A DNA stretch of 32,000 bases from Oceanicella sp. SM1341 (GCF_003448965.1 NZ_QRGC01000030.1:6991-38990), one strand, 5' to 3'; numbered from the stretch's first letter, positions 1,353 to 14,546 are shown. The notes: generated from the sequence alone by a model not told the origin. Numbers and translations: made by a program.

Positions 1353-3344
1353 ATGTCCGGTACCAAGATCCTCTGGGGGCAGATCCTCACGGTCTTTCTG
1401 ATCGTTCTTCTCACCACCTGGGGCGCGACCGAATATGTCGCCTGGAGGCTCGGGTTTCAGGCGCAGCTCGGATCGCCCTGGTTCATCCTGCTGGGCTGGC
1501 CGGTCTATCTGCCGCCGTCCTTCTTCTGGTGGTGGTATGCCTACGATGCCTATGCCCCCGACATCTTCGTCCGCGGCGCCTTCATCGCCGCGTCGGGCGG
1601 TTTCCTCGCCATCGCTGTCGCGATCGGCATGTCGGTCTGGCGCGCACGCGAGGCCAAGAAGGCGGAAACCTATGGCTCGGCGCGTTGGGCAGAGGCGCAG
1701 GAGGTGAAGTCGGCCGGGCTGCTGCGCCCCGATGGCGTGGTGCTCGGGCAATATAATCGTGACTATCTTCGCCACGACGGGCCGGAGCATGTCCTGTGTT
1801 TCGCGCCGACCCGATCAGGCAAGGGCGTCGGTCTCGTCGTCCCGTCGCTGCTGACCTGGCCCGGATCGGCGATCGTCCACGACATCAAGGGTGAGAACTG
1901 GCAGCTCACCTCCGGGTTCAGATCGCGCCACGCCCGCGTGCTCCTGTTTGACCCAACCAACGCCAAATCCGCCGCCTACAATCCGCTGCTCGAAGTGCGG
2001 CGCGGCGAATGGGAAGTGCGCGATGTCCAGAACATCGCCGACATCCTGGTCGACCCCGAAGGCAGCCTCGAGAAGCGAAACCATTGGGAGAAGACCTCTC
2101 ATGCGCTCTTGGTCGGCGCCATCCTGCATGTGCTCTATGCCGAGACGGACAAGACGCTGGCCGGTGTCGCCGCCTTCCTCTCCGACCCAGGGCGGCCAAT
2201 CGAGTCGACGCTGGCCACCATGATGAAGACGGCGCATCTGGGGCAGGGGGGACCGCATCCCGTCATCGCCAGCGCGGCGCGCGAACTGCTCAACAAGTCC
2301 GACAACGAGCGCTCGGGCGTGCTCTCCACGGCCATGTCGTTCCTCGGCCTCTATCGCGATCCTGTGGTGGCCGAAGTTACCCGGCGCTGCGACTGGCGCA
2401 TCGGCGACATCGTGGGCGCAAAAGACCCCACCACGCTCTATCTCGTCGTTCCTCCCTCCGACATCAACCGCACCAAGCCGTTGATCCGCCTGATCCTCAA
2501 TCAGGTGGGCCGTCGACTAACAGAAGATCTGCAGGCGAAAGCGGGCCGCCACCGGCTGCTGCTGATGCTCGACGAGTTTCCGGCGCTCGGCCGGCTCGAC
2601 TTCTTCGAGAGCGCACTCGCCTTCATGGCCGGTTATGGGCTGAAAAGCTTCCTGATCGCGCAATCGCTGAACCAGATCGAGAAGGCCTACGGCGCCAACA
2701 ACTCGATCCTCGACAATTGCCATGTTCGCGTCAGCTTCGCGACCAACGACGAACGCACGGCCAAGCGCGTCTCCGATGCACTCGGCACGGCCACGCAGAT
2801 GAAGGCGATGAAGAACTATGCCGGACACAGGCTCAGCCCCTGGCTCGGGCACCTCATGGTGTCGCGCTCGGAGACCGCGCGGCCGCTGCTCACCCCCGGC
2901 GAAATCATGCAGCTTCCGCCGAGCGACGAGATCGTCATGGTCGCGGGCACACCACCGATCCGGGCGAAGAAGGCCCGCTACTACGAGGACGCGCGCTTCA
3001 GCGAACGCATCTTGCCGCCACCGGCACACAGCGCGCCGAATGAGGGCCGCCCGGATGATTGGACCACGCTTCCATTGCCGGCGCGCCCGGCAGTGGCTGA
3101 GACGAAGGGTGCAACAGTGTCTCAGGACGAGGATACGACCGACTCCGAGCGCCGCCGTCAACCCGAACTCAGCCGGGTGAAGCCGGTGGAAAAGAAGGTA
3201 CCGATCGACAACCCCTTCGAACTGGATGCTGATCGAGACGAGGAGCTCGACGATGCTGCAACGCGCAATCAGCGCATGACCGGGCTCATGCAAGGGGTGG
3301 CGCGGCAGGTCTCGCTTGATCCGAACGACGGCATGGAGCTGTGA
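1353..3344 (+). CDS. traG: Type IV coupling protein TraG (VirD4 family)
   Basis: 663 aa with N-terminal hydrophobic segments. Walker A is APTRSGKGVGLVVPS and Walker B is LLLMLDEFPALG. SD AGGAAAGG lies upstream of the ATG at 1353. Confidence 0.95.
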   Translation: MSGTKILWGQILTVFLIVLLTTWGATEYVAWRLGFQAQLGSPWFILLGWPVYLPPSFFWWWYAYDAYAPDIFVRGAFIAASGGFLAIAVAIGMSVWRAREAKKAETYGSARWAEAQEVKSAGLLRPDGVVLGQYNRDYLRHDGPEHVLCFAPTRSGKGVGLVVPSLLTWPGSAIVHDIKGENWQLTSGFRSRHARVLLFDPTNAKSAAYNPLLEVRRGEWEVRDVQNIADILVDPEGSLEKRNHWEKTSHALLVGAILHVLYAETDKTLAGVAAFLSDPGRPIESTLATMMKTAHLGQGGPHPVIASAARELLNKSDNERSGVLSTAMSFLGLYRDPVVAEVTRRCDWRIGDIVGAKDPTTLYLVVPPSDINRTKPLIRLILNQVGRRLTEDLQAKAGRHRLLLMLDEFPALGRLDFFESALAFMAGYGLKSFLIAQSLNQIEKAYGANNSILDNCHVRVSFATNDERTAKRVSDALGTATQMKAMKNYAGHRLSPWLGHLMVSRSETARPLLTPGEIMQLPPSDEIVMVAGTPPIRAKKARYYEDARFSERILPPPAHSAPNEGRPDDWTTLPLPARPAVAETKGATVSQDEDTTDSERRRQPELSRVKPVEKKVPIDNPFELDADRDEELDDAATRNQRMTGLMQGVARQVSLDPNDGMEL

Positions 3345-3999: not shown

Positions 4000-4989
4000 A
4001 TGGCAGCCTCACATCACAATTCGGAAGGGATCGCTCGAGGCGCGCGGATGCTGCGCACCGCGCTCGGTCCGGCCATCGCGACTTTCCTGGAAGACCCAGG
4101 AGTCGTCGAGGTGATGCTGAACCCGGACGGACGGCTCTGGATCGATCGCCTCTCCGAGGGACTGTCCGATACGGGCGAGCATCTGTCATCGGAGGATGGC
4201 GAACGGATCATCCGTCTTGTCGCCCACCATGTCGGTGCGGAGGTCCATACCGGAAGCCCCCGCGTCTCGGCGGAACTGCCCGGAACGGGAGAGCGGTTCG
4301 AGGGACTTCTGCCGCCAGTCGTGGCGGCGCCGGCCTTCGCCATCCGAAAGCCGGCCGTCGCGGTGTTCACGCTGCTGGACTACGTGGCCGCCGGAATCAT
4401 GAGCGCCGAACAGGCCAATGTTTTGCGCCGCGCCGTCTTCGACCGCGCCAACATCCTCGTCGCAGGCGGCACTTCCACCGGCAAGACGACGCTGACCAAT
4501 GCGCTGCTCGCCGAGGTGGCGAAGACCTCTGATCGCGTCGTCATCATCGAAGATACCCGCGAGTTGCAATGCGCCGCGCCCAACCTTGTCGCCATGCGGA
4601 CCAAGGACGGCGTCGCCTCGCTCTCCGATCTCGTCCGCTCCTCGCTGCGCCTGCGCCCCGACCGAATTCCGGTCGGCGAGGTGCGTGGCGCCGAGGCGCT
4701 GGACCTTCTCAAAGCCTGGGGCACCGGCCATCCCGGCGGCATAGGGACCATCCATGCCGGCAGCGCCATCGGCGCGCTGCGCCGCATGGAACAGCTCATT
4801 CAGGAAGCCGTCGTCATCGTGCCCAGAGCGCTGATCGCCGAGACAATTGACCTCGTGGCGGTGCTCTCCGGCCGCGGTGCCGCGCGCCGGCTCTCCGAAC
4901 TCGCCCGCGTCGAGGGCCTCGGCACGGACGGCGATTACCGCATCGTGCCCGCCACCACTCATCTCCAGCCCGAAGAAGGAACCTCCTAA
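4000..4989 (+). CDS. trbB: Conjugal transfer ATPase TrbB (VirB11 family)
   Basis: 329 aa with Walker [12 protein letters not shown], plus the EDTRELQ and [12 protein letters not shown] motifs typical of VirB11/TrbB secretion ATPases. Confidence 0.95.
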
Positions 4990-5345: not shown

Positions 5346-5626
5346 TGCCGGGCGGTGTAGATCAGGGTGGAGACGTTCCCGGCTATTCGGTCCCGCTGCA
5401 CCGGGCGCTCAGCGAGCCGATCCTGCTTGGCGGCGCACCGCGTGCCATCGCCATCCTGAACGGCACACTCGCCGGAGCGGTGGGTCTCGGACTGCGCCTC
5501 TGGCTCGTCGGCATCGCCATCTGGGCGATCGGGCATTTCGCGGCGGTGTGGGCGGCCAAGCGCGATCCGCTCTTCGTCGAGGTCGGCCGCCGCCATCTGC
5601 GCATTCCCGCGCATCTCACGGTCTGA
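5345..5626 (+). CDS. trbD: TrbD (VirB3 family)
   Basis: 93 aa. The ATG shares one nt with the trbC stop (TGATG). The sequence PLHRALSEPILLGGAPR followed by a hydrophobic hairpin is typical of TrbD. The longer track ORF from 4847 is an upstream extension that overlaps trbB and trbC. Confidence 0.85.
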   Translation: MPGGVDQGGDVPGYSVPLHRALSEPILLGGAPRAIAILNGTLAGAVGLGLRLWLVGIAIWAIGHFAAVWAAKRDPLFVEVGRRHLRIPAHLTV

Positions 5627-5640
5627 GGGGAAGCGCCGCC

Positions 5641-8127
5641 ATGATGAACCTCGCCGAATACCGCAATAGAAACGCCCGTCTCGCCGATTACCTCCCCTGG
5701 GTGGCGCTGGCCGGTTCCGGCATCGTGCTCAACAAGGATGGCAGCTTCCAGCGCACGGCGCGGTTTCGCGGTCCCGATCTGGATTCCGCGGTGCCGGCGG
5801 AGCTGGTCGCGGTCGCGGGCCGTCTCAACAACGCTTTCCGCCGGCTCGGTTCGGGCTGGGCGATCTTCGTCGAGGCGCAGCGCAATCCGGCCGCGGTCTA
5901 CCCCGTCAGCACGTTTCCCGATGCAGCGTCCGCATTGGTCGATGCCGAGCGCAAAGCGGATTTCGAACAGGCGGGGTCACATTTCGAATCTTCGTATTTC
6001 CTGACCTTCACCTGGCTGCCGCCGGCCGAGGACGCCGCCCGCGCCGAGACCTGGCTTTACGAAGGCCGCGAGAAGACCGGCATCGATGCGCACGAAGCGC
6101 TGAACGGCTTCGCCGATCGCACCGACCGGCTGCTCAACCTGATCGAAGCCTTCATGCCGGACTGCCGCTGGCTCGATGACGGCGAGACCCTGACCTACCT
6201 GCATGGCTGCATTTCCACGCAGCGCCATCGCGTCCGTGTCCCCGAGACGCCCATGTATCTTGACGCGCTCTTGGCCGATCAGCCGCTCACGGGCGGGCTG
6301 GAACCGCGTCTGGGATCGGCGCATCTGCGCGTTCTCACAATCACCGGCTTTCCGACTGCGACGACGCCGGGCCTGCTGGACGAGTTGAACCGGCTGGCCT
6401 TTCCCTATCGCTGGTCCACCCGGGCGATCCTGCTTGACAAGAGCGATGCGGTGAAGCTGCTGACGAAGATCCGCCGCCAGTGGTTTGCCAAGCGCAAGTC
6501 CATCGCCGCGATCCTCAAGGAAGTGATGACCAACGAGCAATCCGTGCTCGTGGACACAGATGCCTCCAACAAGGCGGCCGATGCTGATCTCGCGCTGCAG
6601 GAGCTTGGCGCAGACTATGCCGGCATCGCCTATGTCACCGCGACGGTCACGGTGTCCGACGCCGATCCACGCATTGCCGACGAGAAGCTGCGCCTCGTCG
6701 AGAAGGTGATCCAGGGCCGCGACTTCACCGCGATGGCCGAGACCATCAATGCGGTGGACGCTTGGCTCGGCAGTCTACCCGGTCATGTCTATGCCAATGT
6801 CCGGCAACCGCCGATCAGCACTTTGAATCTCGCCCACATGATCCCCCTGAGCGCTGTGTGGGCGGGGCCGGAACGGGGAGGTCCGAGCAGTGATGGGCAT
6901 TTCACAGCGCCCCCGCTGCTCTTCGGCAAGACCGAAGGCTCTACCCCGTTCCGGTTTTCCCTTCATGTCAGCGATGTCGGGCATACGCTCGTCGTCGGCC
7001 CGACCGGCGCGGGCAAGTCCGTGCTGCTGGCGCTTATGGCGCTGCAGTTCCGCCGATATGCCGGTGCCCAGGTCTTTGCCTTCGACTTCGGAGGGTCGAT
7101 CCGTGCCGCCGCGCTCGCCATGGGCGGCGACTGGCACGATCTTGGTGGCGGGCTCAGTGAGGGATCAGAATCTTCCGTCAGCCTGCAGCCGCTCACCCGC
7201 GTCGATGACAGCGCCGAGCGCGCCTGGGCTGCCGACTGGATCGGCGCGATCCTGAAGCGCGAAGGTGTCGCGGTCACGCCCGAGGTGAAGGAGCATCTCT
7301 GGACGGCGCTGACCTCGCTGGCCTCGGCGCCGGTCGAGGAGCGCACCATCACCGGGCTGTCAGTCCTCCTTCAATCCAACGACTTGAAGCAGGCCTTGCG
7401 TCCCTATTGCTTCGGTGGCGCCTGGGGGCGGTTGCTGGATGCCGAAGACGAACATCTGGGCCATTCCACGGTCCAGGCTTTCGAGACGGAAGGGCTGATC
7501 GGGACCGAGGCGGCCCCCGCCGTGCTCGCCTATCTGTTCCACCGGATCGAAGGTCGCCTCGACGGTTCGCCGACGCTGATCATCGTCGATGAAGGCTGGC
7601 TCGCGCTCGATGACGAGGGGTTCGCCGACCAGCTCCGCGAGTGGCTGAAGACCCTTCGCAAGAAGAACGCCTCCGTCATCTTCGCCACCCAGTCGCTGAG
7701 CGACATCGATGGTAGTCCGATCGCGCCGGCGATCATCGAGAGCTGCCCGACCCGGATACTGCTCCCGAACGAACGTGCGATCGAGCCGCAGATCACCGCC
7801 ATCTATCGCCGCTTCGGCCTCAATGACCGCCAGATCGAGATCCTCGCACGGGCCATGCCCAAGCGCGACTACTACTGCCAGTCGCGGCGTGGAAATCGCC
7901 TGTTCGAGCTGGGCCTGTCGGAGGTGGCGCTGTGCCTTTGTGCCGCGTCGTCGCGCCAGCATCAGCAGCGCATCGCCGAGATCCACGCCCGAACCGGCAC
8001 CGACGGCTTCCTCCACGATTGGCTCGCGGAAAACAGCCTCGCCTGGGCGGCCGACATGATCGCCGACCTCACCAACCTCGCGTCCCGGTCTCCCATGCCC
8101 ACCACCAACGAGGAAGTTCCGACATGA
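5641..8127 (+). CDS. trbE: Conjugal transfer ATPase TrbE (VirB4 family)
   Basis: 828 aa counted from ATG 5641 (MMNLAEYRNRNARLADYLPW). Walker A is VVGPTGAGKS and the Walker B-like segment is LIIVDEGW. The position after trbD is conserved. Confidence 0.95.
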   Translation: MMNLAEYRNRNARLADYLPWVALAGSGIVLNKDGSFQRTARFRGPDLDSAVPAELVAVAGRLNNAFRRLGSGWAIFVEAQRNPAAVYPVSTFPDAASALVDAERKADFEQAGSHFESSYFLTFTWLPPAEDAARAETWLYEGREKTGIDAHEALNGFADRTDRLLNLIEAFMPDCRWLDDGETLTYLHGCISTQRHRVRVPETPMYLDALLADQPLTGGLEPRLGSAHLRVLTITGFPTATTPGLLDELNRLAFPYRWSTRAILLDKSDAVKLLTKIRRQWFAKRKSIAAILKEVMTNEQSVLVDTDASNKAADADLALQELGADYAGIAYVTATVTVSDADPRIADEKLRLVEKVIQGRDFTAMAETINAVDAWLGSLPGHVYANVRQPPISTLNLAHMIPLSAVWAGPERGGPSSDGHFTAPPLLFGKTEGSTPFRFSLHVSDVGHTLVVGPTGAGKSVLLALMALQFRRYAGAQVFAFDFGGSIRAAALAMGGDWHDLGGGLSEGSESSVSLQPLTRVDDSAERAWAADWIGAILKREGVAVTPEVKEHLWTALTSLASAPVEERTITGLSVLLQSNDLKQALRPYCFGGAWGRLLDAEDEHLGHSTVQAFETEGLIGTEAAPAVLAYLFHRIEGRLDGSPTLIIVDEGWLALDDEGFADQLREWLKTLRKKNASVIFATQSLSDIDGSPIAPAIIESCPTRILLPNERAIEPQITAIYRRFGLNDRQIEILARAMPKRDYYCQSRRGNRLFELGLSEVALCLCAASSRQHQQRIAEIHARTGTDGFLHDWLAENSLAWAADMIADLTNLASRSPMPTTNEEVPT

Positions 8128-8885
8128 TCCGCACCCGATCCAGCGCCCGGCGCTTCGCCCTGGCGCTTCTCAGCGCGCCCGTTCTTCTGACCCCGATACT
8201 GGCGACGCCCGCCTATGCGATCATCGTGTTCGATCCCTCGAACTACGCACAAAACGTCCTGACGGCGGCGCGCGCGCTCGAACAGATCAACAATCAGATC
8301 ACCTCGCTTCAGAACCAGGCGCAGATGCTGATCAACCAGGCCCGCAACCTCGCGAGCCTTCCGTTTTCCTCGCTGCAACAGCTTCAGCAATCCGTGCAGC
8401 GCACCCAGCAACTTCTCGCCCAAGCGCAGAACATCGCCTACAACGTGCAGCGGATCGATCAGGCGTTTCAGACCAAATACGCCAATGTCTCGATGTCCGC
8501 ATCGGACGCGCAGCTCGTCGCCGATGCCAGAACCCGCTGGCAGAACACCGTGGGCGGCCTGCAGGACGCCATGCGCGTACAGGCAACCGTCGTCGGCAAT
8601 ATCGAGACCAACCGCCAGCAGATGTCGGCGCTGGTGGGCGCGAGCCAGTCAGCGACGGGCGCTCTCCAGGCGACGCAGGCTGGCAACCAGCTTCTCGCCC
8701 TGCAGGCCCAGCAGCTCTCCGACCTCACAGCCGTCATCTCCGCGAATGGTCGCGCGCAGGCCCTGCACGATGCCGAGCAGGCCGCCGCGGCTGAACAGGG
8801 CCGCGAACAGCGTCGCCGCTTCCTGACCCCCGGTTCGGGCTACCAGCCCGGCAACGCCCGGATGTTCCCGGGCAGCGACAGTTGA
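8124..8885 (+). CDS. trbJ: TrbJ (VirB5-like)
   Basis: There is an ATGA overlap with the trbE stop. A signal peptide (LLTPILATPAYA) is followed by a Q/L-rich coiled-coil-like sequence typical of TrbJ. Confidence 0.85.
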   Translation: MIRTRSSARRFALALLSAPVLLTPILATPAYAIIVFDPSNYAQNVLTAARALEQINNQITSLQNQAQMLINQARNLASLPFSSLQQLQQSVQRTQQLLAQAQNIAYNVQRIDQAFQTKYANVSMSASDAQLVADARTRWQNTVGGLQDAMRVQATVVGNIETNRQQMSALVGASQSATGALQATQAGNQLLALQAQQLSDLTAVISANGRAQALHDAEQAAAAEQGREQRRRFLTPGSGYQPGNARMFPGSDS

Positions 8886-8895
8886 GGGCAGGGCG

Positions 8896-9165
8896 ATGGA
8901 CGGCAAGACCCTCGCACGCATCGGCGCCATCGTCTTCGTCGCGGTCGCGATCACCGCCACCGTGATCCAGATGACCCGCAAAGATGCGGTGCCTCCAGCG
9001 CCCGCCGCGTCCTCCGCGCCGACGGCGGACAGGCAAGATCCGCTGAGCGCGGAGCTAACCCGATGCAGCCAGGCCGGAGAAGCCGCCACACATGATCCAG
9101 CCTGCCTTAATGCCTGGGCCGAGAACCGTCGGCGTTTCCTCGGTCACAGCAGCGAAGGGCGCTGA
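8896..9165 (+). CDS. trbK: Putative entry-exclusion protein TrbK-alt
   Basis: 89 aa. The N-terminal TM segment is LARIGAIVFVAVAITATVI and the C-terminal motif is CLNAWAENRRRFLG. It sits between trbJ and trbL. Confidence 0.6.
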   Translation: MDGKTLARIGAIVFVAVAITATVIQMTRKDAVPPAPAASSAPTADRQDPLSAELTRCSQAGEAATHDPACLNAWAENRRRFLGHSSEGR

Positions 9166-9229
9166 ACGTGAAAGTAGAGATGAAGCGCTCCATCGCCTTC
9201 CGGAGACGAGTTTCTCTATCCCTCTTCCC

Positions 9230-9263
9230 GAACCGGACATGCAGGTTTCCAAGCATCCGGCTC
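9230..9263 (-). ncRNA. Group II intron domain V
   Basis: The minus strand reads GAGCCGGATGCTTGGAAACCTGCATGTCCGGTTC. This is a 34-nt hairpin with the AGC triad, a G-U wobble, a 2-nt bulge and a GAAA-type apical loop. Confidence 0.9.
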
Positions 9264-9299
9264 TCCATGCACGGGCGGTCGTCAGCCCGTGGGTGTGCC

Positions 9300-10826
9300 T
9301 CAAACGCGTCTGAGGCGCGCGAACGCAGTCCAGAAGTCAAGCAGGGTTTCCCGATGCCTGTTTTCCCATCTTGCGTTCCATCCGTTCGGTTTCTCGATTC
9401 GCTGTTCCGGGTAACGCATGGTTCCTCCGTCAGTGAAGAACCGCAGGCGTCTGGACCCTTCGGTCCATTGCCGTCGTTTTCCGGGGGCGCTGAGATGATA
9501 GCGGCGCCGCAGGGTCGGCCAACCCGCATTGCCGTGCTTCATCTTCAACCAGCGCCCGACGCGCTGCCATATCCAGAAGTCGAGATGGCTGAACCGACCG
9601 TGCGCGCCTGTGGCGTAACGGTAATAGTTCCTCCACCCCGTGATGACCGGATTGAGCCTGTCGATGACGTAGGCAAGGTCGCGTCCCGTGGGGATGCCCC
9701 TCACCATGACCTTGATCTTGTGGCGCAGGTCGTTCAGCTTTCCCTTCGGGATGAAGAGATTGCCGACCCATCGGCCTGTCCGACAGGCTCTGGTCTGCGC
9801 CACCCGGTAGCCGAGGAAGTCGAAGCCTTCCCTGACATCGGTGATCCGGGTCTTTTCCATCGACAGTTCCATGCGAAGCTCCGTCTTCAGGAACTCCGCC
9901 AGCGCGAGCTTTTCCGCTTCCGCCTGCTCCCGCGTGCCATCCACGAGAACGACGAAGTCGTCCGCGTATCGCACCATGTAGAGCACCGGCCGACCCCTCT
10001 TGTGGTCTCTGACCCTTCGGGCCGCCGGATTGATGCTCGGTTCGCGGGGGCGGCCTGTCCACCATCCATACCGCTCGTCGATGGCTGTCAGGTAGATGTT
10101 CGACAGCATCGGCGAGATGATCCCGCCTTGCGGCGAGCCGGTGACGGGGTGGCGTTCGGTCCCTTCGACCATCACACCGGCTTTCAGGAACGAGAGGATC
10201 AGCGCCAGCACCTTGCGGTCGCCGATGCGTTTCCGGACCCGCTCCATCATGACGTGATGATCGATGGCGTCGAAGCAGCCCTTGATGTCTCCCTCTATGA
10301 CATAGCGATAGACCGAGGGTCCGCGCTTTGTCGGGTGAAGGAACCTCTGGATTCTTGCCAGAGCATCGTGGGTGCTTCGACCGCGCCGGAACCCGTAGGA
10401 GGTCGGATAGAAGTCCGCCTCGAAGATAGGCTCCAGGACCAGCTTCAAAGCCATCTGCACCAGACGATCGACCAACGTTGGAATGCCGAGTGGCCGGAAC
10501 TGCCCCGGTTTGCCGGGCTTTGGGATAAGCCGCTGCCTGACCGGTTGGGGACGATAGGTTCCGTTGCGAAGCACCTCGCGTATCTCATCGAGGAACCCTG
10601 CTGCGCCACCGGGACGCTGTTCGACCATGCGCCGCGTCACCCCGTCGGTGCCGGGTGTCTGGCTGCCCCGATTACCGGACAGCCTTCGCCACGCCTCCTC
10701 AAGGAATCGGCGGTCGCATACGAGATTGAACAGACCAGCGAAGACCTTGTCGGGGTCTTCGTTGCTCCACCGATACAGCTTGCGCTGCATGTCGAGGACG
10801 AACAAGATATTCATCTCGTTGGACAT
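9300..10826 (-). CDS. Group II intron reverse transcriptase/maturase (no En domain)
   Basis: 508 aa from the ATG at 10826, preceded by AGGAGG with a 7 nt spacer. RT motifs present: IPKPGKPGQFRPLGIPTLVDRLVQ, DIKGCFD, GSPQGGIISPMLSNIYL, RYADDFVVL. The maturase X motif is ITGWRNYYRYA. The C-terminal ~90 aa contain no Cys and no HNH signature. Confidence 0.93.
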   Translation of the reverse strand: MSNEMNILFVLDMQRKLYRWSNEDPDKVFAGLFNLVCDRRFLEEAWRRLSGNRGSQTPGTDGVTRRMVEQRPGGAAGFLDEIREVLRNGTYRPQPVRQRLIPKPGKPGQFRPLGIPTLVDRLVQMALKLVLEPIFEADFYPTSYGFRRGRSTHDALARIQRFLHPTKRGPSVYRYVIEGDIKGCFDAIDHHVMMERVRKRIGDRKVLALILSFLKAGVMVEGTERHPVTGSPQGGIISPMLSNIYLTAIDERYGWWTGRPREPSINPAARRVRDHKRGRPVLYMVRYADDFVVLVDGTREQAEAEKLALAEFLKTELRMELSMEKTRITDVREGFDFLGYRVAQTRACRTGRWVGNLFIPKGKLNDLRHKIKVMVRGIPTGRDLAYVIDRLNPVITGWRNYYRYATGAHGRFSHLDFWIWQRVGRWLKMKHGNAGWPTLRRRYHLSAPGKRRQWTEGSRRLRFFTDGGTMRYPEQRIEKPNGWNARWENRHRETLLDFWTAFARLRRV

Positions 10827-11464
10827 GGGTCCACCTCCTGCCTGCTCGCTGTATCCACTGCCTTCCTTCGCCATGTGGACGGCTTTCCCGTCCCCGGACT
10901 ACTACGAAGGCTCCGCCCCTCACCATCGCGGTCGCTGGTCGCTTCAGCCATCCGGGGTCCGACTGTTCCGGAAGCGACGGCAAGGTTCTTAGGTTCCGTA
11001 ACTGATCTCTCGCCTGCTTTAGGCGCCGACTTTACCCCGTGTGGATTCCGACCCCGATACCGCGCAAGCTCATATCGAGGCTGGCGCACGGCACGCCGCA
11101 CACCCCCAGCCCATGTGTCCATAGCACGGGCCAACGCTCCACAAATCTGCGGTTCGCACCACAGACCGACCCGCCGACTTCCGAGTTGGCGTGTCTCCGC
11201 GCGTAACGAGGCGTCCGCCATCGGTTCGGTTTCCCTCGCCATGGCAGGCTCGCTGGCCGGACCACGTACGGGATCGGAAGTCCCCGCCCGTCCGGCTTTG
11301 ATGGGTTCTGCTGATTTATGGCTCCCCGGAAGCACCCGGTTTGCCTCACCCATCGGCTTGTCACCGCATGTTGCGCCACACGGTGCGCGGGGCCTTTCAT
11401 CCCGCGAGATCAGAAACGACAATAAAATCAAAGCACTCCTTTCTTTGATCAGGACCTAACGCAC

Positions 11465-12796
11465 ATGGGCAACACCGGCGTCATCGATCACTTCCTCGAT
11501 GTCTTTACCCGCTACATCGACGGCGGCTTCGGTCTGCTTGGCGGCGAGGTCGGTTTCATCGCCACCACGCTGATCGTCATCGACGTGACGCTGGCCGCGC
11601 TCTTCTGGTCCTGGGGCGCCGACGACGACATCATGGCGCGGCTCGTCAAGAAGACGCTTTTCGTCGGTGTTTTCGCCTACATCATCTCCAACTGGAACAA
11701 TCTGGCCCGGATCGTTTTCGAAAGCTTCGCGGGGCTCGGCCTGAAGGCGTCCGGCACGGGCTTTACCACGGCCCAGCTTCTCCAGCCCGGCAAGGTCGCC
11801 CAGACCGGCCTTGATGCGGGGAGGCCGCTGCTCGATTCCATCTCGAACCTGATGGGCTATTGGTCCTTCTTCGAGAATTTCATCCAGATCGCCTGCATGT
11901 TCTTCGCCTGGGCGCTGGTGCTCTTGGCCTTCTTCATCCTCGCCATCCAGCTCTTCGTCACGCTGATCGAGTTCAAGCTGACGACGCTCGCCGGCTTCGT
12001 GCTGATCCCCTTCGGTCTCTTCGGCAAGTCCGCCTTCATGGCCGAGCGGGTGCTCGGTAACGTCATCTCCTCGGGCATCAAGGTTCTGGTGCTCGCCGTT
12101 ATCATCGGTATCGGCTCGACACTCTTTTCCGAATTCGCCGCAGGGTTTGGCGGCGCGACACCGACCATCGACGATGCGATGGCGATCGTGCTGGCAGCCC
12201 TTTCACTGCTTGGCCTCGGCATTTTCGGCCCCGGTATCGCAACGGGGCTCGTCTCCGGCGGTCCCCAGCTTGGCGCCGGATCGGCGATCGGCAGCGGTCT
12301 TGCTGCCGGCGGCATGGTCGTCGCGGGCGGCGCGGCGCTCGGGGCTGCGGCCTCCGGTGGCGCATCTCTCCTTGGCGGAGCGGCGGCAGCCGCCCGTGGT
12401 GGGGCCGCGCTCGCGGGCGGGGCATCCACCGCCTACAGCCTCGGCGCCGCCGGACAGACCGGCGCGTCCGCCGTTGCATCTGGCCTCGGCAATGTCGCCA
12501 GCACCGGCGCATCGCAGGCTGGATCTGCCTTGGTCAGCCCGCTCAGACGCGCCGCGGGATCGATGCGCGGCAGCTTCGAGGCCGGTGGGCGTGCCGTCTC
12601 CGGCGAAGCCGCTGCCGATGAACGTGCATCGGCCGCAGCCGCAGCCTCATCTGCGCCCGACAGCCCGCCTGCCTGGGCAAAGCGCATGAAGCGCTCCCAA
12701 GCCATGTCCCACGGGATGCAGGTCGCAGCCCATTCCGTCCGCAGCGGCGACAGCCACGGCAGCGGCTCTTCCGTCAACACCTCCGAAAGCGACTGA
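11465..12796 (+). CDS. trbL: TrbL (VirB6 family)
   Basis: 443 aa. The N-terminus GVIDHFLDVFTRYIDGGFGLLGGEVGFIATTLIVIDVTLA is typical of TrbL. It has multiple TM segments and a Gly/Ala-rich C-terminal tail. Confidence 0.93.
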   Translation: MGNTGVIDHFLDVFTRYIDGGFGLLGGEVGFIATTLIVIDVTLAALFWSWGADDDIMARLVKKTLFVGVFAYIISNWNNLARIVFESFAGLGLKASGTGFTTAQLLQPGKVAQTGLDAGRPLLDSISNLMGYWSFFENFIQIACMFFAWALVLLAFFILAIQLFVTLIEFKLTTLAGFVLIPFGLFGKSAFMAERVLGNVISSGIKVLVLAVIIGIGSTLFSEFAAGFGGATPTIDDAMAIVLAALSLLGLGIFGPGIATGLVSGGPQLGAGSAIGSGLAAGGMVVAGGAALGAAASGGASLLGGAAAAARGGAALAGGASTAYSLGAAGQTGASAVASGLGNVASTGASQAGSALVSPLRRAAGSMRGSFEAGGRAVSGEAAADERASAAAAASSAPDSPPAWAKRMKRSQAMSHGMQVAAHSVRSGDSHGSGSSVNTSESD

Positions 12797-12798
12797 CC

Positions 12799-13479
12799 AT
12801 GTTCAAGCGATCCGCCACCCACTACGGCAAATCCCCTCAGCCTGAGACACCCTACCAGCGGGCGGCGCAGGTCTGGGACGAACGCATCGGCTCCGCCCGC
12901 GTCCAGGCGAGGAACTGGCGCCTCATGGCTTTCGGCTGCCTCATTCTGTCCGGTGGACTTTCGGGCGCACTGGTCTGGCAATCGCTGAGTGGCTCAATCG
13001 TGCCGTGGGTGGTGCAGGTGGACAAGCTCGGCCAGGCCCAGGCCGTCGCGCCCGCGACCGCCGACTACACACCGAACGACGCCCAGGTCGCCTGGTATCT
13101 CGCCCGCTTCATCGAGGAGGTCCGCTCGATCCCGGCCGATCCGATCATCGTCCGGCAGAACTGGCTTCGGGCCTATGACTTCACCACGACCGCGGGCGCG
13201 CAGGCGCTCAACAACTATGCCCGCGCCAACGATCCCTTCGCCAAGGTGGGCAAGCAGCAAATCGCGGTGGGGGTGTCGTCGGTCATTCGCGCCTCACCGT
13301 CGAGCTTCCGCATCGCCTGGGTCGAGCGCCGCTATCAGGACGGTTCGCTCGCCAGCACCGAGCGCTGGTCGGCGATCCTCACCGTCGCGGTCCAAGCACC
13401 GCGCGATGCCGACACGCTGCGAAAGAACCCGCTCGGAATCTACGTCACCGCAATCAACTGGTCGAAGGAGCTTGGATGA
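12799..13479 (+). CDS. trbF: TrbF (VirB8-like)
   Basis: 226 aa starting 2 nt after the trbL stop. It has a single N-terminal TM (WRLMAFGCLILSGGLSGALVW) and the conserved position. Confidence 0.9.
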   Translation: MFKRSATHYGKSPQPETPYQRAAQVWDERIGSARVQARNWRLMAFGCLILSGGLSGALVWQSLSGSIVPWVVQVDKLGQAQAVAPATADYTPNDAQVAWYLARFIEEVRSIPADPIIVRQNWLRAYDFTTTAGAQALNNYARANDPFAKVGKQQIAVGVSSVIRASPSSFRIAWVERRYQDGSLASTERWSAILTVAVQAPRDADTLRKNPLGIYVTAINWSKELG

Positions 13480-14546
13480 TGACGCCGACCTTCCGCAAAT
13501 CCGCCACCGGAACAGCGGGACGCCCGACTTTCCGTATTCACGCCATTCCGGCTTTCCGCAAATCCGGCTTGCCGGTATTCCTGCTTTGCGCAACCGCGCT
13601 TGCCGGTTGTGCGGCTCATATGCCGCCGCCCGAGATTTCCTATGACCATGCCGCGCCGGCTGTATTCAAAGCCGATCCGCCGGCGCCCGTGCGGGTCGTC
13701 ACCCTGCCTAAGCCCCTGCCTCTTCCGGGCCAGTTGAAGCCGGTCGGCAAGGACGGCAAGGCAACGCCCCAGGCGAAAGACCCCCAGCAGCGGGTCAACA
13801 ACGCCAATGCCGCCGCACGCATCCAGCCCGTGCGAGACGGGTTCATAAATTCCATGCAGGTCTATCCCTTCGTCGAAGGCGCGCTCTATCAGGTCTATGC
13901 GTCACCGGGGCAGATCACCGACATCGGGCTCCAACCCGGCGAACAGCTTGTCGGCTCCGGTCCCGTGGCCGCCGGGGATACGGTGCGCTGGATCATCGGC
14001 GATACCGAGAGCGGCGCGGGCGCGTCGAAACAGGTGCATATCCTCGTCAAGCCGACCCGGCCGGAACTGATGACCAATCTCGTTATCAACACCAATCTGC
14101 GCACCTATCACATGGAACTGCGCTCGACCGAGAAGACCTATATGGCCTCGGTCTCCTGGCAATATCCGCAGGACCAGCTCATTGCGCTGCGCCGCCAGAA
14201 TCGTGAGGCGGAAACCTCACGACCAATTTCCGCCGGCGTCGATCTGTCGAAGGTCAATTTCCGCTATGCGATCACCGGCGACCGCGCCCCGTGGCGGCCG
14301 CTGCGCGCTTTCGACGATGGGCGGCAGGTGTTCATCGAGTTTCCGCGCGGCATTGCCCAGGGCGAAATGCCGCCGCTCTTCGTCGCCGGTCCCGAGGGCA
14401 AGACCTCCGATCTCGTGAACTACCGCGTGCGCGGCAATTACATGATCGTCGACCGGCTCTTCGCGGCCGCCGAGCTGCGCTTCGGTTCGGGCAAGCATCA
14501 GAAGCGCATCCGTATCTCCCGGACGGATGGGAGGCGCGCATCGTGA
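13476..14546 (+). CDS. trbG: TrbG (VirB9 family) with extended repeat-containing N-terminus
   Basis: There is an ATGA overlap with trbF. A lipobox-like LLCATALAGC is followed by a VirB9-like body (YPFVEGALYQVYASPGQITDI, TYHMELRST). About 30 extra N-terminal residues carry three P(T/A)FR(K/I) repeats. Confidence 0.88.
   Translation: MMTPTFRKSATGTAGRPTFRIHAIPAFRKSGLPVFLLCATALAGCAAHMPPPEISYDHAAPAVFKADPPAPVRVVTLPKPLPLPGQLKPVGKDGKATPQAKDPQQRVNNANAAARIQPVRDGFINSMQVYPFVEGALYQVYASPGQITDIGLQPGEQLVGSGPVAAGDTVRWIIGDTESGAGASKQVHILVKPTRPELMTNLVINTNLRTYHMELRSTEKTYMASVSWQYPQDQLIALRRQNREAETSRPISAGVDLSKVNFRYAITGDRAPWRPLRAFDDGRQVFIEFPRGIAQGEMPPLFVAGPEGKTSDLVNYRVRGNYMIVDRLFAAAELRFGSGKHQKRIRISRTDGRRAS

Follow-up and report, generated by a model that had tools for sequence, protein, structure and literature searches.

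What allows a conjugation operon to carry, between two of its genes, an intron that its messenger RNA cannot lose? The question is raised by a stretch of 32,000 nucleotides (nt) from Oceanicella sp. SM1341 (the window, whose positions are used throughout, with the + strand taken as the direction of the trb operon), in which a complete group II intron of 2297 nt (9168-11464, - strand) is inserted antisense in the trb operon, with the trbK stop codon and the AC after it on one side and the ATG of trbL on the other. Because it lies backwards, the intron is unspliceable from the trb mRNA. The usual view is that bacteria tolerate group II introns because these splice out or stay clear of genes, and a backward insertion into an operon should be a polar dead end. 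The strand that the operon reads is nevertheless spanned, almost from one intron end to the other, by a single open reading frame (ORF) of 763 codons (9168-11459, + strand). Comparison with relatives shows that this frame is kept free of stop codons by selection, and suggests that it probably serves as a path for ribosomes towards trbL.

The frame is free of stops from 9111, the preceding in-frame stop being a TAA at 9108, and begins with the GTG at 9168 or, alternatively, with an in-frame ATG 12 nt inside the intron (9180-9182, + strand), which is the complement of a CAT in domain VI and is kept in 14 of 14 aligned introns. It ends at a TAA (11457-11459) that is the complement of intron nt 6-8 and stands 5 nt ahead of the trbL ATG at 11465. 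A sequence-only reading of the same DNA had described the frame in these terms, from its open stretch to its start, its stop and its length, and both the ORF listing and the sequence bear it out. The frame is in register with the codons of the intron-encoded reverse transcriptase (RT) on the opposite strand, and besides the RT part it crosses 770 nt of non-coding ribozyme.

Taken alone, the open antisense frame over the RT is unremarkable. Open in-register antisense frames accompany 38% of the gene-like ORFs of 500-599 codons in the same genome, where TTA, CTA and TCA, the codons that read as antisense stops, together make up 0.25% of codons; the RT of the window has none of the three. The 5.7-Mb genome holds 5359 stop-to-stop ORFs of at least 1200 nt, and the antisense strands of ribozymes generally hold few stops (1.5-2 per 150 codons in 76 relatives). 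All of this favours the view that the frame is a shadow ORF arisen by chance in GC-rich DNA and passed on to close relatives by phylogenetic inertia. Of dinucleotide shuffles, 2.8% left the 5′ ribozyme part without a stop and 36% did so for the 3′ part, and the joint chance of the whole open frame in one sequence is about 0.003. Shuffling the intron was a control that the sequence-only reading had proposed, and equally open frames proved uncommon under it. Among the 37 variant letters listed, of 467 found as metagenome variation, none makes a stop in the antisense frame.

The relatives of the intron allow a stronger test. Searching 5.8 billion proteins with the RT as query, which gave 954 proteins at E <= 1e-100, brought up RTs that are 66-91% identical, and DNA was fetched for those on long contigs. 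All fetched relatives with an RT identity of at least 79% (79-91%; 13 distinct host operons) are antisense, with the intron 5′ end abutting a trbL start (ATG or GTG) and with trbK or a trbJ-like gene upstream. Their hosts are Bradyrhizobium, Sphingopyxis, Mesorhizobium, Methylocapsa, Xanthobacter, Sphingomonas (two operons) and several metagenomes, and one RT protein of this trbL-site lineage is also annotated in Agrobacterium vitis. In a Mesorhizobium metagenome-assembled genome and in Novosphingobium pokkalii (L002:1866-4158; L222, L223, intron 5′ end at 2408), introns of a sister lineage (RT identity about 75%) precede the MobA/MobL relaxase gene traA, antisense to it and 11-13 nt away from its ATG, and in these copies too the antisense frame is open over nearly the whole intron. 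Searches for further members were less productive: plasmids of PLSDB gave RT relatives only at 70% identity or less, a class-level DNA search of 400 genomes gave no further intron copies, a metagenome scan with the RT gave mostly distant relatives and just one at 79% identity, and the loci that an order-level search with the antisense protein brought up all had RT identities matching those of L002 and L020, so that we counted them as the same loci.

Fourteen non-redundant introns of 2294-2300 nt (12 from the trbL site and 2 from the traA site) could be aligned with almost no indels, and their maximum-likelihood tree has a length of 1.415 substitutions per site. We refer to the antisense frame in register with the RT as A0, to the other antisense frames as A1 and A2, and to the sense frames as S0-S2. 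A0 is open from junction to junction in 13 of 13 distinct trbL-site members, and the 14 introns have no A0 stops but the terminal ones and, in a single traA-site copy, two close to the far end. Over the 5′ ribozyme part, the mean number of stops per sequence is 4.36 in A1 and 6.36 in A2, with 0 interior stops in A0, while phase-specific composition leads one to expect 3.95, 6.6 and 4.4, respectively. The copy from Xanthobacter carries a 15-nt insertion which keeps the antisense frame.

For a substitution test, we took seven phylogenetically independent pairs of tips and moved each observed substitution to a site drawn at random from those of its own type and class. No new A0 stop was observed, against 10.0 expected in the ribozyme parts and 27.9 expected in the RT, and the products of the P(0) values are 2.5e-5 and 1.8e-14, respectively. 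The test was calibrated on all six frames of the ribozyme parts, with both directions summed. A0 gained 0 stops against 19.6 expected, A1 gained 8 against 16.9, A2 20 against 25.8, S0 37 against 31.4, S1 3 against 24.3 and S2 32 against 36.8. Control frames therefore gained roughly the numbers expected; A1 and S1 are taken up below. A comparison with other copies of the intron had been suggested by the sequence-only reading, which allowed that the frame could equally be chance; that concession does not survive the absence of interior stops from every trbL-site member and the 0 gains against 19.6.

Codon usage within the RTs points the same way. Codons that read as antisense stops were never used, in 0 of 600 chances for CTA, 0 of 163 for TCA and 0 of 42 for TTA (0 of 805 overall), yet other A-ending codons, rare ones included, are used freely (GTA 7%, ACA 14%, GCA 14%, CCA 10%, GGA 24%, CGA 16%, ATA 53 of 353), and therefore a general codon bias is insufficient to explain the gap. 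Further out, among 73 wider relatives (RT identity 41-76%) the frame is open over its full length in 11, and the clustering of these on the RT tree is again what inertia would produce; 58 of the 73 carry between 1 and 12 TTA, CTA or TCA codons within the RT-matched part alone, many of them in higher-GC hosts. An antisense habit of the whole family was considered and rejected, since the orientation of flanking genes is mixed over 80 wider relatives. One distant intron (L007:1882-4149, RT 62% identical) lies antisense between two co-directional genes with its frame fully open, 12 nt upstream of an ATG and directly ahead of the GGAGGAAG ribosome-binding site of that gene; similarly distant introns (L004-L006 and L008) have stops in the antisense frame. 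Within the trbL- and traA-site introns, the sequence comparisons show that the openness of A0 has itself been selected across the lineage.

What is kept is openness and not a protein. In the ribozyme part, A0 has a pN/pS (ratio of nonsynonymous to synonymous change) of 0.87, within the range of 0.68-0.89 found for frames full of stops, and over the RT its pN/pS is 1.32, against 0.25 for the RT frame itself. The variability of alignment columns by codon phase is flat in the 5′ part (0.147, 0.151 and 0.159) and periodic in the RT (0.129, 0.101 and 0.281), and Pfam gives no match to the 763-aa (amino acid) antisense product at E up to 0.01. The earlier impression that the product looks like junk is in keeping with these values, which show an amino-acid sequence that is, as judged from substitution patterns, unconstrained, with stop codons alone excluded.

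Nothing in the parts of the element sets it apart from ordinary mobile group II introns. Domains V-VI of the ribozyme (9168-9265, - strand) match Rfam RF00029 with 54.9 bits (gathering score 40, E 2.5e-8), while Rfam families for domains I-IV gave no match on the intron even at E up to 1, which leaves it without a place among the named structural classes (A-F, CL, ML). The RT/maturase of 508 aa (9300-10826, - strand; Pfam RVT_1 E 2.7e-31, GIIM E 2.7e-15) has homologues annotated at the same length, and Pfam reports no endonuclease domain in it. Ribozyme domains I-IVa (10827-11464, - strand, 638 nt) can be aligned with relatives and vary without a period-3 pattern. The intron 5′ end reads GTGCG at 11464 and its 3′ end ...TTTCAC at 9168, in line with the group II boundaries GUGYG...AY, and the branch-site A, placed by homology with relatives, is 8 nt from the 3′ end. 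Three lines of evidence set the 3′ end at 9168: relatives end in ...CCCTACTCTAC at the equivalent position; a metagenome contig with an unrelated flank matches from exactly 9168 on; and nine intron-less junctions, including those of Sphingobium pCHQ1 and of the second trb operon of the window's own genome, read trbK stop, 2-3 nt, ATG-GGN (MGNTG or MGGTG). Deleting 9168-11464 leaves TGA-AC-ATG, the same as in intron-less junctions, and contigs from four DNA metagenomes confirm boundaries and empty sites. A complete antisense intron between trbK and trbL had thus been correctly recognised from the sequence, with its length given as 2291 nt instead of the 2297 nt that the relatives, the contig and the empty junctions give.

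This boundary also decides what the GTG at 9168 is. Because the intron 3′ end falls at 9168, the GTG is the complement of the last three bases of the intron, and because it belongs to the intron, the old trbL did not start there. The proposal that trbL before the insertion began at this GTG (MKMGNTG) is contradicted by 9 of 9 intron-less homologues, which begin trbL at ATG-GGN.

The position of the intron agrees with its targeting. The 5′ exon ends in six bases complementary to the start codon and three further bases, and these six pair with intron nt 343-348, with 6 of 6 pairs in most members. In the window, the first intron-binding site (IBS1) is GCCCAT, the complement of trbL ATG-GGC, and is paired by the candidate exon-binding site (EBS1) ATGGAC (intron nt 343-348; 11117-11122, - strand), whose pairing covaries across relatives; a second, perfect EBS1 match, ATGGGC, lies at intron nt 351-356 (11109-11114, - strand). 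Compensatory changes of EBS1 and IBS1 include ATGGAC/GTCCAT, ATGGGT/GCCCAT, ATGGAT/GTTCAT and GTGGAT/GTTCAC. The invaded operons are not close relatives of each other, their TrbL proteins being just 44-87% identical against 79-92% for the introns, and trbL is complete in 12 invaded operons. In one Sphingomonas chromosome, two copies about 300 kb apart (L220 and L221) are 100% identical and occupy the same site in operons whose TrbL proteins are 70% identical, which points to a recent homing event within one genome. From these comparisons the trbL-site lineage is shown to be, as judged from sequence, actively mobile, and the trbL start to be its true homing site.

The genome of Oceanicella sp. 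SM1341 carries a single intron copy. Its second trb operon (G000:C2:23584-23825 and downstream) has an empty trbK-trbL junction with no intron, and the ATGGGC... of that empty site would give the IBS1 GCCCAT, as at the occupied site. The 5′ splice-site consensus GTGCG reads GCGCG in L218 and L219 and CTGCG in L126; these copies may perhaps have lost splicing, and their antisense frame is still open.

We then considered how ribosomes could enter and leave the frame. In empty sites trbK and trbL are coupled by a stop, 2-3 nt and a start, and in some hosts an ATGA overlap can be inferred; intron-less homologues have GGAG- or GAGG-like motifs at the equivalent place ahead of the trbL ATG. In the window, the former trbL ribosome-binding site, as judged from the sequence and from comparison with these homologues, is the GAAGGG within the 3′ end of trbK (9154-9159, + strand), and the GTG at 9168 occupies the former position of the trbL ATG behind it; the sequence-only reading had noticed this motif, with a spacer of 7 nt, which by our count is 8 nt. 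An intron end of ...TTTCAC, which places a GTG in A0 at the old trbL start, is found in 8 of 13 trbL-site members, the window included, and this junction GTG sits 8-11 nt behind host ribosome-binding sites that read GAAGGG, AGGAG, GAGGA or GGGAGGG. In three copies (L117, L118 and L124), from hosts where trbK and trbL had overlapped as ATGA, trbK lost its stop through the insertion; its frame now extends by one base into the intron and is closed by a TAG that the ...CTAC end of the intron provides.

At the other end, A0 closes with a TAA that is 5 nt short of the trbL start in 10 of the 13 trbL-site members and with a TGA that is 16 nt short of it in 2; an ATGA overlap is found in 1, the Xanthobacter copy (L224, outside the 14-intron alignment), in which TGA overlaps the trbL ATG. 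Across the 14 aligned introns the stop falls at intron nt 6-8 in 11 (TAA in 10 trbL-site copies, TGA in L222) and, as TGA, at nt 17-19 in L220 and L126, the latter with a second stop at nt 14-16; L002 has no terminal A0 stop inside the intron. The Novosphingobium traA-site copy has a TGA 16 nt before the relaxase ATG. An intron-borne Shine-Dalgarno (SD)-like AGGA (11451-11454, + strand; antisense of intron nt 11-14) stands 10 nt ahead of the trbL ATG in the window, and relatives have AGGA, GGGA, GGGG or GGAA at that distance. The stop-start spacing together with the SD-like motif gives the putative exit the sequence features of a termination-reinitiation unit, conserved in the lineage.

These observations suggest the following course of events. 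The terminal CAC of the intron would put a GTG where the trbL ATG used to sit, behind the ribosome-binding site at the 3′ end of trbK, and ribosomes leaving trbK, or binding that site, would start at the GTG or at the in-frame ATG 12 nt on. They would translate 763 junk codons across the antisense intron, terminate at the TAA 5 nt before the displaced trbL ATG, beside the AGGA, and reinitiate on trbL. Continuous translation would keep the C-rich 2.3-kb insert (33% C and 28.5% G on the + strand) from serving as an entry site for Rho, and would restore the coupling of trbK to trbL. The genes trbL, trbF, trbG and trbI would stay expressed, and the conjugative element, which is the vehicle of the intron to new targets, would stay transmissible. 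At the level of the intron the selective logic would be that a copy silencing these four genes strands its own vehicle.

We consider translational bridging across the antisense intron, relieving polarity on trbL and the genes downstream, to be probably the best explanation of the conserved open frame. That the frame is translated, that polarity is thereby relieved and that this relief is the selected trait are points we infer. The suggestion of the sequence-only reading that the open frame lets the operon tolerate an unspliceable antisense intron has gained from relatives without stops, from an unconstrained product and from a conserved start and stop geometry, whereas its translation and suppression of Rho stay at the level of what the sequence would predict. 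In the region 8800-11800 there are no intrinsic-terminator-like sites on either strand, where shuffles average 1.9, and a single promoter-like site, which is weak and on the minus strand (9522-9495).

The intron also carries a conserved sense frame, S1, of 206 codons across ribozyme domains I-IVa (10811-11431, - strand), reported by gene callers in many relatives. It is preceded by a conserved AAGGAG (intron nt 24-29; 11436-11441, - strand) and by a TTG at nt 34, and its terminal TGA overlaps RT codon 5, reading as ATGA or GTGA at the overlap. Against the 24.3 new stops expected in the ribozyme parts S1 gained 3, and with substitutions creating stops in the antisense frame left out it gained 1 against 17.1 expected, which rules out S1 as a pure by-product of the antisense frame; the converse conditional test for the antisense frame gave 0 against 12.5. 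The pN/pS of S1 is 0.81, indicating no amino-acid constraint, and one or two stops interrupt it in 3 of 14 introns. The RT start has a separate AGGAGG 7 nt ahead of it, and fusion of S1 to the RT by a -1 frameshift was rejected, as the 16-nt overlap holds no slippery motif.

Several points weigh against the bridging explanation. The openness of S1 is not explained by relief of polarity on the trb mRNA, and another force acts on the 5′ region. The shortfall of A1 in the 5′ ribozyme part (8 gains against 16.9) means that the random-placement null is about two-fold too high in one control frame, and reflects (in the equivalent of 10827-11444) either a miscalibrated null or a weak constraint. For the RT part the expectation depends on the ordinary bias against CTA and TTA, and the family shares of the own genome lower it to 1.27 per sequence. 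Moreover, 5 of 13 trbL-site members are without the junction GTG, reading GTA or GCA. Translation of these copies would need to begin at the internal ATG, a codon with no good ribosome-binding site, through ribosomes that reinitiate once they have terminated on the upstream gene. In the four GTA copies both frames other than A0 are closed by TAG or TAA at the junction, and of the same two frames in L126, the GCA copy, a TAA closes one while the other continues for 14 codons more; in all five, A0 runs on to the in-frame ATG 12 nt inside the intron. Given the active mobility of the lineage, intact downstream genes could partly reflect recent insertion and not tolerance. Finally, 763 junk codons are costly to translate.

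The alternative that survives best is that openness was selected for another role of ribosome transit, such as blocking the annealing of trb mRNA to intron RNA, which would shield the expression or splicing of the intron from antisense inhibition and RNase III, or stabilising a long mRNA. Openness in the absence of amino-acid constraint fits any function that depends on the passage of ribosomes, and the independent conservation of S1 hints that such passage matters on both strands. Such a role would leave unexplained why the ORF starts at the displaced trbL start behind a host ribosome-binding site, why it ends 5-16 nt before, or overlapping, the start of a host gene in both the trbL and the traA lineages, and why an SD-like motif stands 10 nt before trbL; we regard it as possible, with a minor share of the probability.

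It is quite unlikely that the antisense ORF encodes a functional protein, that is, an antiparallel overlapping gene for, say, a disordered Arg/Pro/Ala-rich factor serving the intron or the conjugative element. A long, conserved frame with a plausible start and ribosome-binding site would suit such a gene, and yet its pN/pS is that of stop-filled frames in the ribozyme part and even higher over the RT, the variability has no period of three, and Pfam finds nothing in the product. Among the nearest wider relatives with an open frame, the lengths of the 5′ part (638, 635, 613 and 619 nt) differ by non-multiples of 3, and therefore no homologous antisense protein is conserved. Least probable of all, if by little, is the chance shadow ORF, for all the open antisense frames of this genome, given introns separated by about 1.4 substitutions per site with no stop gained where some 10 (ribozyme) and 28 (RT) were due, an RT that avoids just the three codons concerned, a conserved start and stop geometry and a frame-preserving indel.

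Returning to bridging, we would give about even odds to the fuller picture in which this is an intron lineage specialised in backward homing onto the starts of conjugation genes, its reverse strand kept as a meaningless translatable ORF that takes over the host ribosome-binding site and returns ribosomes at the displaced start, with the same 640 nt of ribozyme also holding a selected sense frame.

The genes around the intron form a conjugation module, all on the + strand. Upstream are traG (1353-3344), trbB (4000-4989), trbE (5548-8127), trbJ (7932-8885) and the entry-exclusion lipoprotein gene trbK (8896-9165; Pfam TrbK, E 2e-36), which ends at the TGA 9163-9165. Downstream, trbL is intact (11465-12796, 443 aa; Pfam TrbL) and is followed by the tightly packed trbF (12799-13479), trbG (13476-14546) and trbI (to 15772), which are covered by Pfam matches to VirB8, CagX and TrbI and are likewise intact in the window.

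If bridging is correct, selection can shape the non-coding reverse strand of an element made of a ribozyme and an RT into a bridge for ribosomes. Such a bridge would account for the persistence and spread of an insertion that cannot be spliced, within the very machinery that carries it between cells, and would be a novel means by which a retroelement avoids doing harm without splicing. One segment of RNA would then meet the demands of a catalytic fold and of two stop-free frames on opposite strands, and the intron would be a natural example of selection for translatability alone, without protein function, as well as a testable case of transcription-translation coupling constraining mobile DNA. 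For annotation it would be both a caution and an opportunity, as long antisense ORFs over introns would not always be noise, and a stop-free design could guide non-polar antisense insertions made with targetron tools. In the literature searched we found no trbL-site intron, no selected antisense ORF in a group II intron and no such device for relief of polarity, and the combination of an antisense homing site at a start codon with a reverse strand kept stop-free appears to be new.

Parts of this arrangement have known parallels. Long antiparallel shadow ORFs occur in GC-rich prokaryotic genomes (bioRxiv 10.1101/724807). They resemble the bridging ORF in being in register with the gene on the opposite strand and in giving no sign of a functional protein; they differ in being by-products which decay among relatives, while the bridging ORF crosses 770 nt of non-coding ribozyme and is actively kept open. 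The group II intron Ll.LtrB of Lactococcus lactis resides in ltrB, the relaxase gene of a conjugative element (PMC6003770). Like the trbL-site intron, it is a mobile group II intron in a conjugation cluster, its spread tied to conjugative transfer. Ll.LtrB is inserted in the sense orientation inside its gene, and its splicing is needed for production of the relaxase. The trbL-site intron, in contrast, is antisense, unspliceable and placed exactly at a gene start, so that expression of the host gene would depend on translation across the intron. RmInt1 of Sinorhizobium meliloti is an endonuclease-less group II intron that homes into an insertion sequence (PMC4075523, PMC4181065). It shares with the trbL-site intron an RT and maturase without an endonuclease domain, alphaproteobacterial hosts, EBS/IBS targeting and homing into mobile DNA, and RTs of Sinorhizobium plasmids are about 46% identical to that of the window; unlike for the trbL-site intron, the literature searched describes no antisense open frame or bridging of a host operon for RmInt1.

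The group IIC-attC introns of integrons are also oriented opposite to the transcription of the surrounding genes, although they target attC stem-loops and not start codons, and we know of no conserved full-length antisense ORF coupled to a neighbouring gene among them. In the yeast mitochondrial introns aI1 and aI2, the upstream exon is continued in frame by an ORF that crosses ribozyme domains I-III, and thus, as proposed for the trbL-site intron, a ribozyme is kept stop-free for ribosomes to read through. There the sense frame yields the intron protein, whereas in the trbL-site intron the whole antisense strand is open and its product apparently meaningless; S1 is the nearer analogue of the aI1/aI2 frame, but is out of frame with the RT. 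Translational coupling in bacterial operons, and the protection that translation gives from Rho-dependent polarity, are textbook knowledge. The trbL-site ORF resembles coupled operons in its 5-nt stop-start spacing or ATGA overlap, in its SD-like motif and in crossing a long C-rich insert that would otherwise be a substrate for Rho; it departs from the textbook cases in that the coupling ORF comes from the reverse strand of a mobile element and is 763 codons long.

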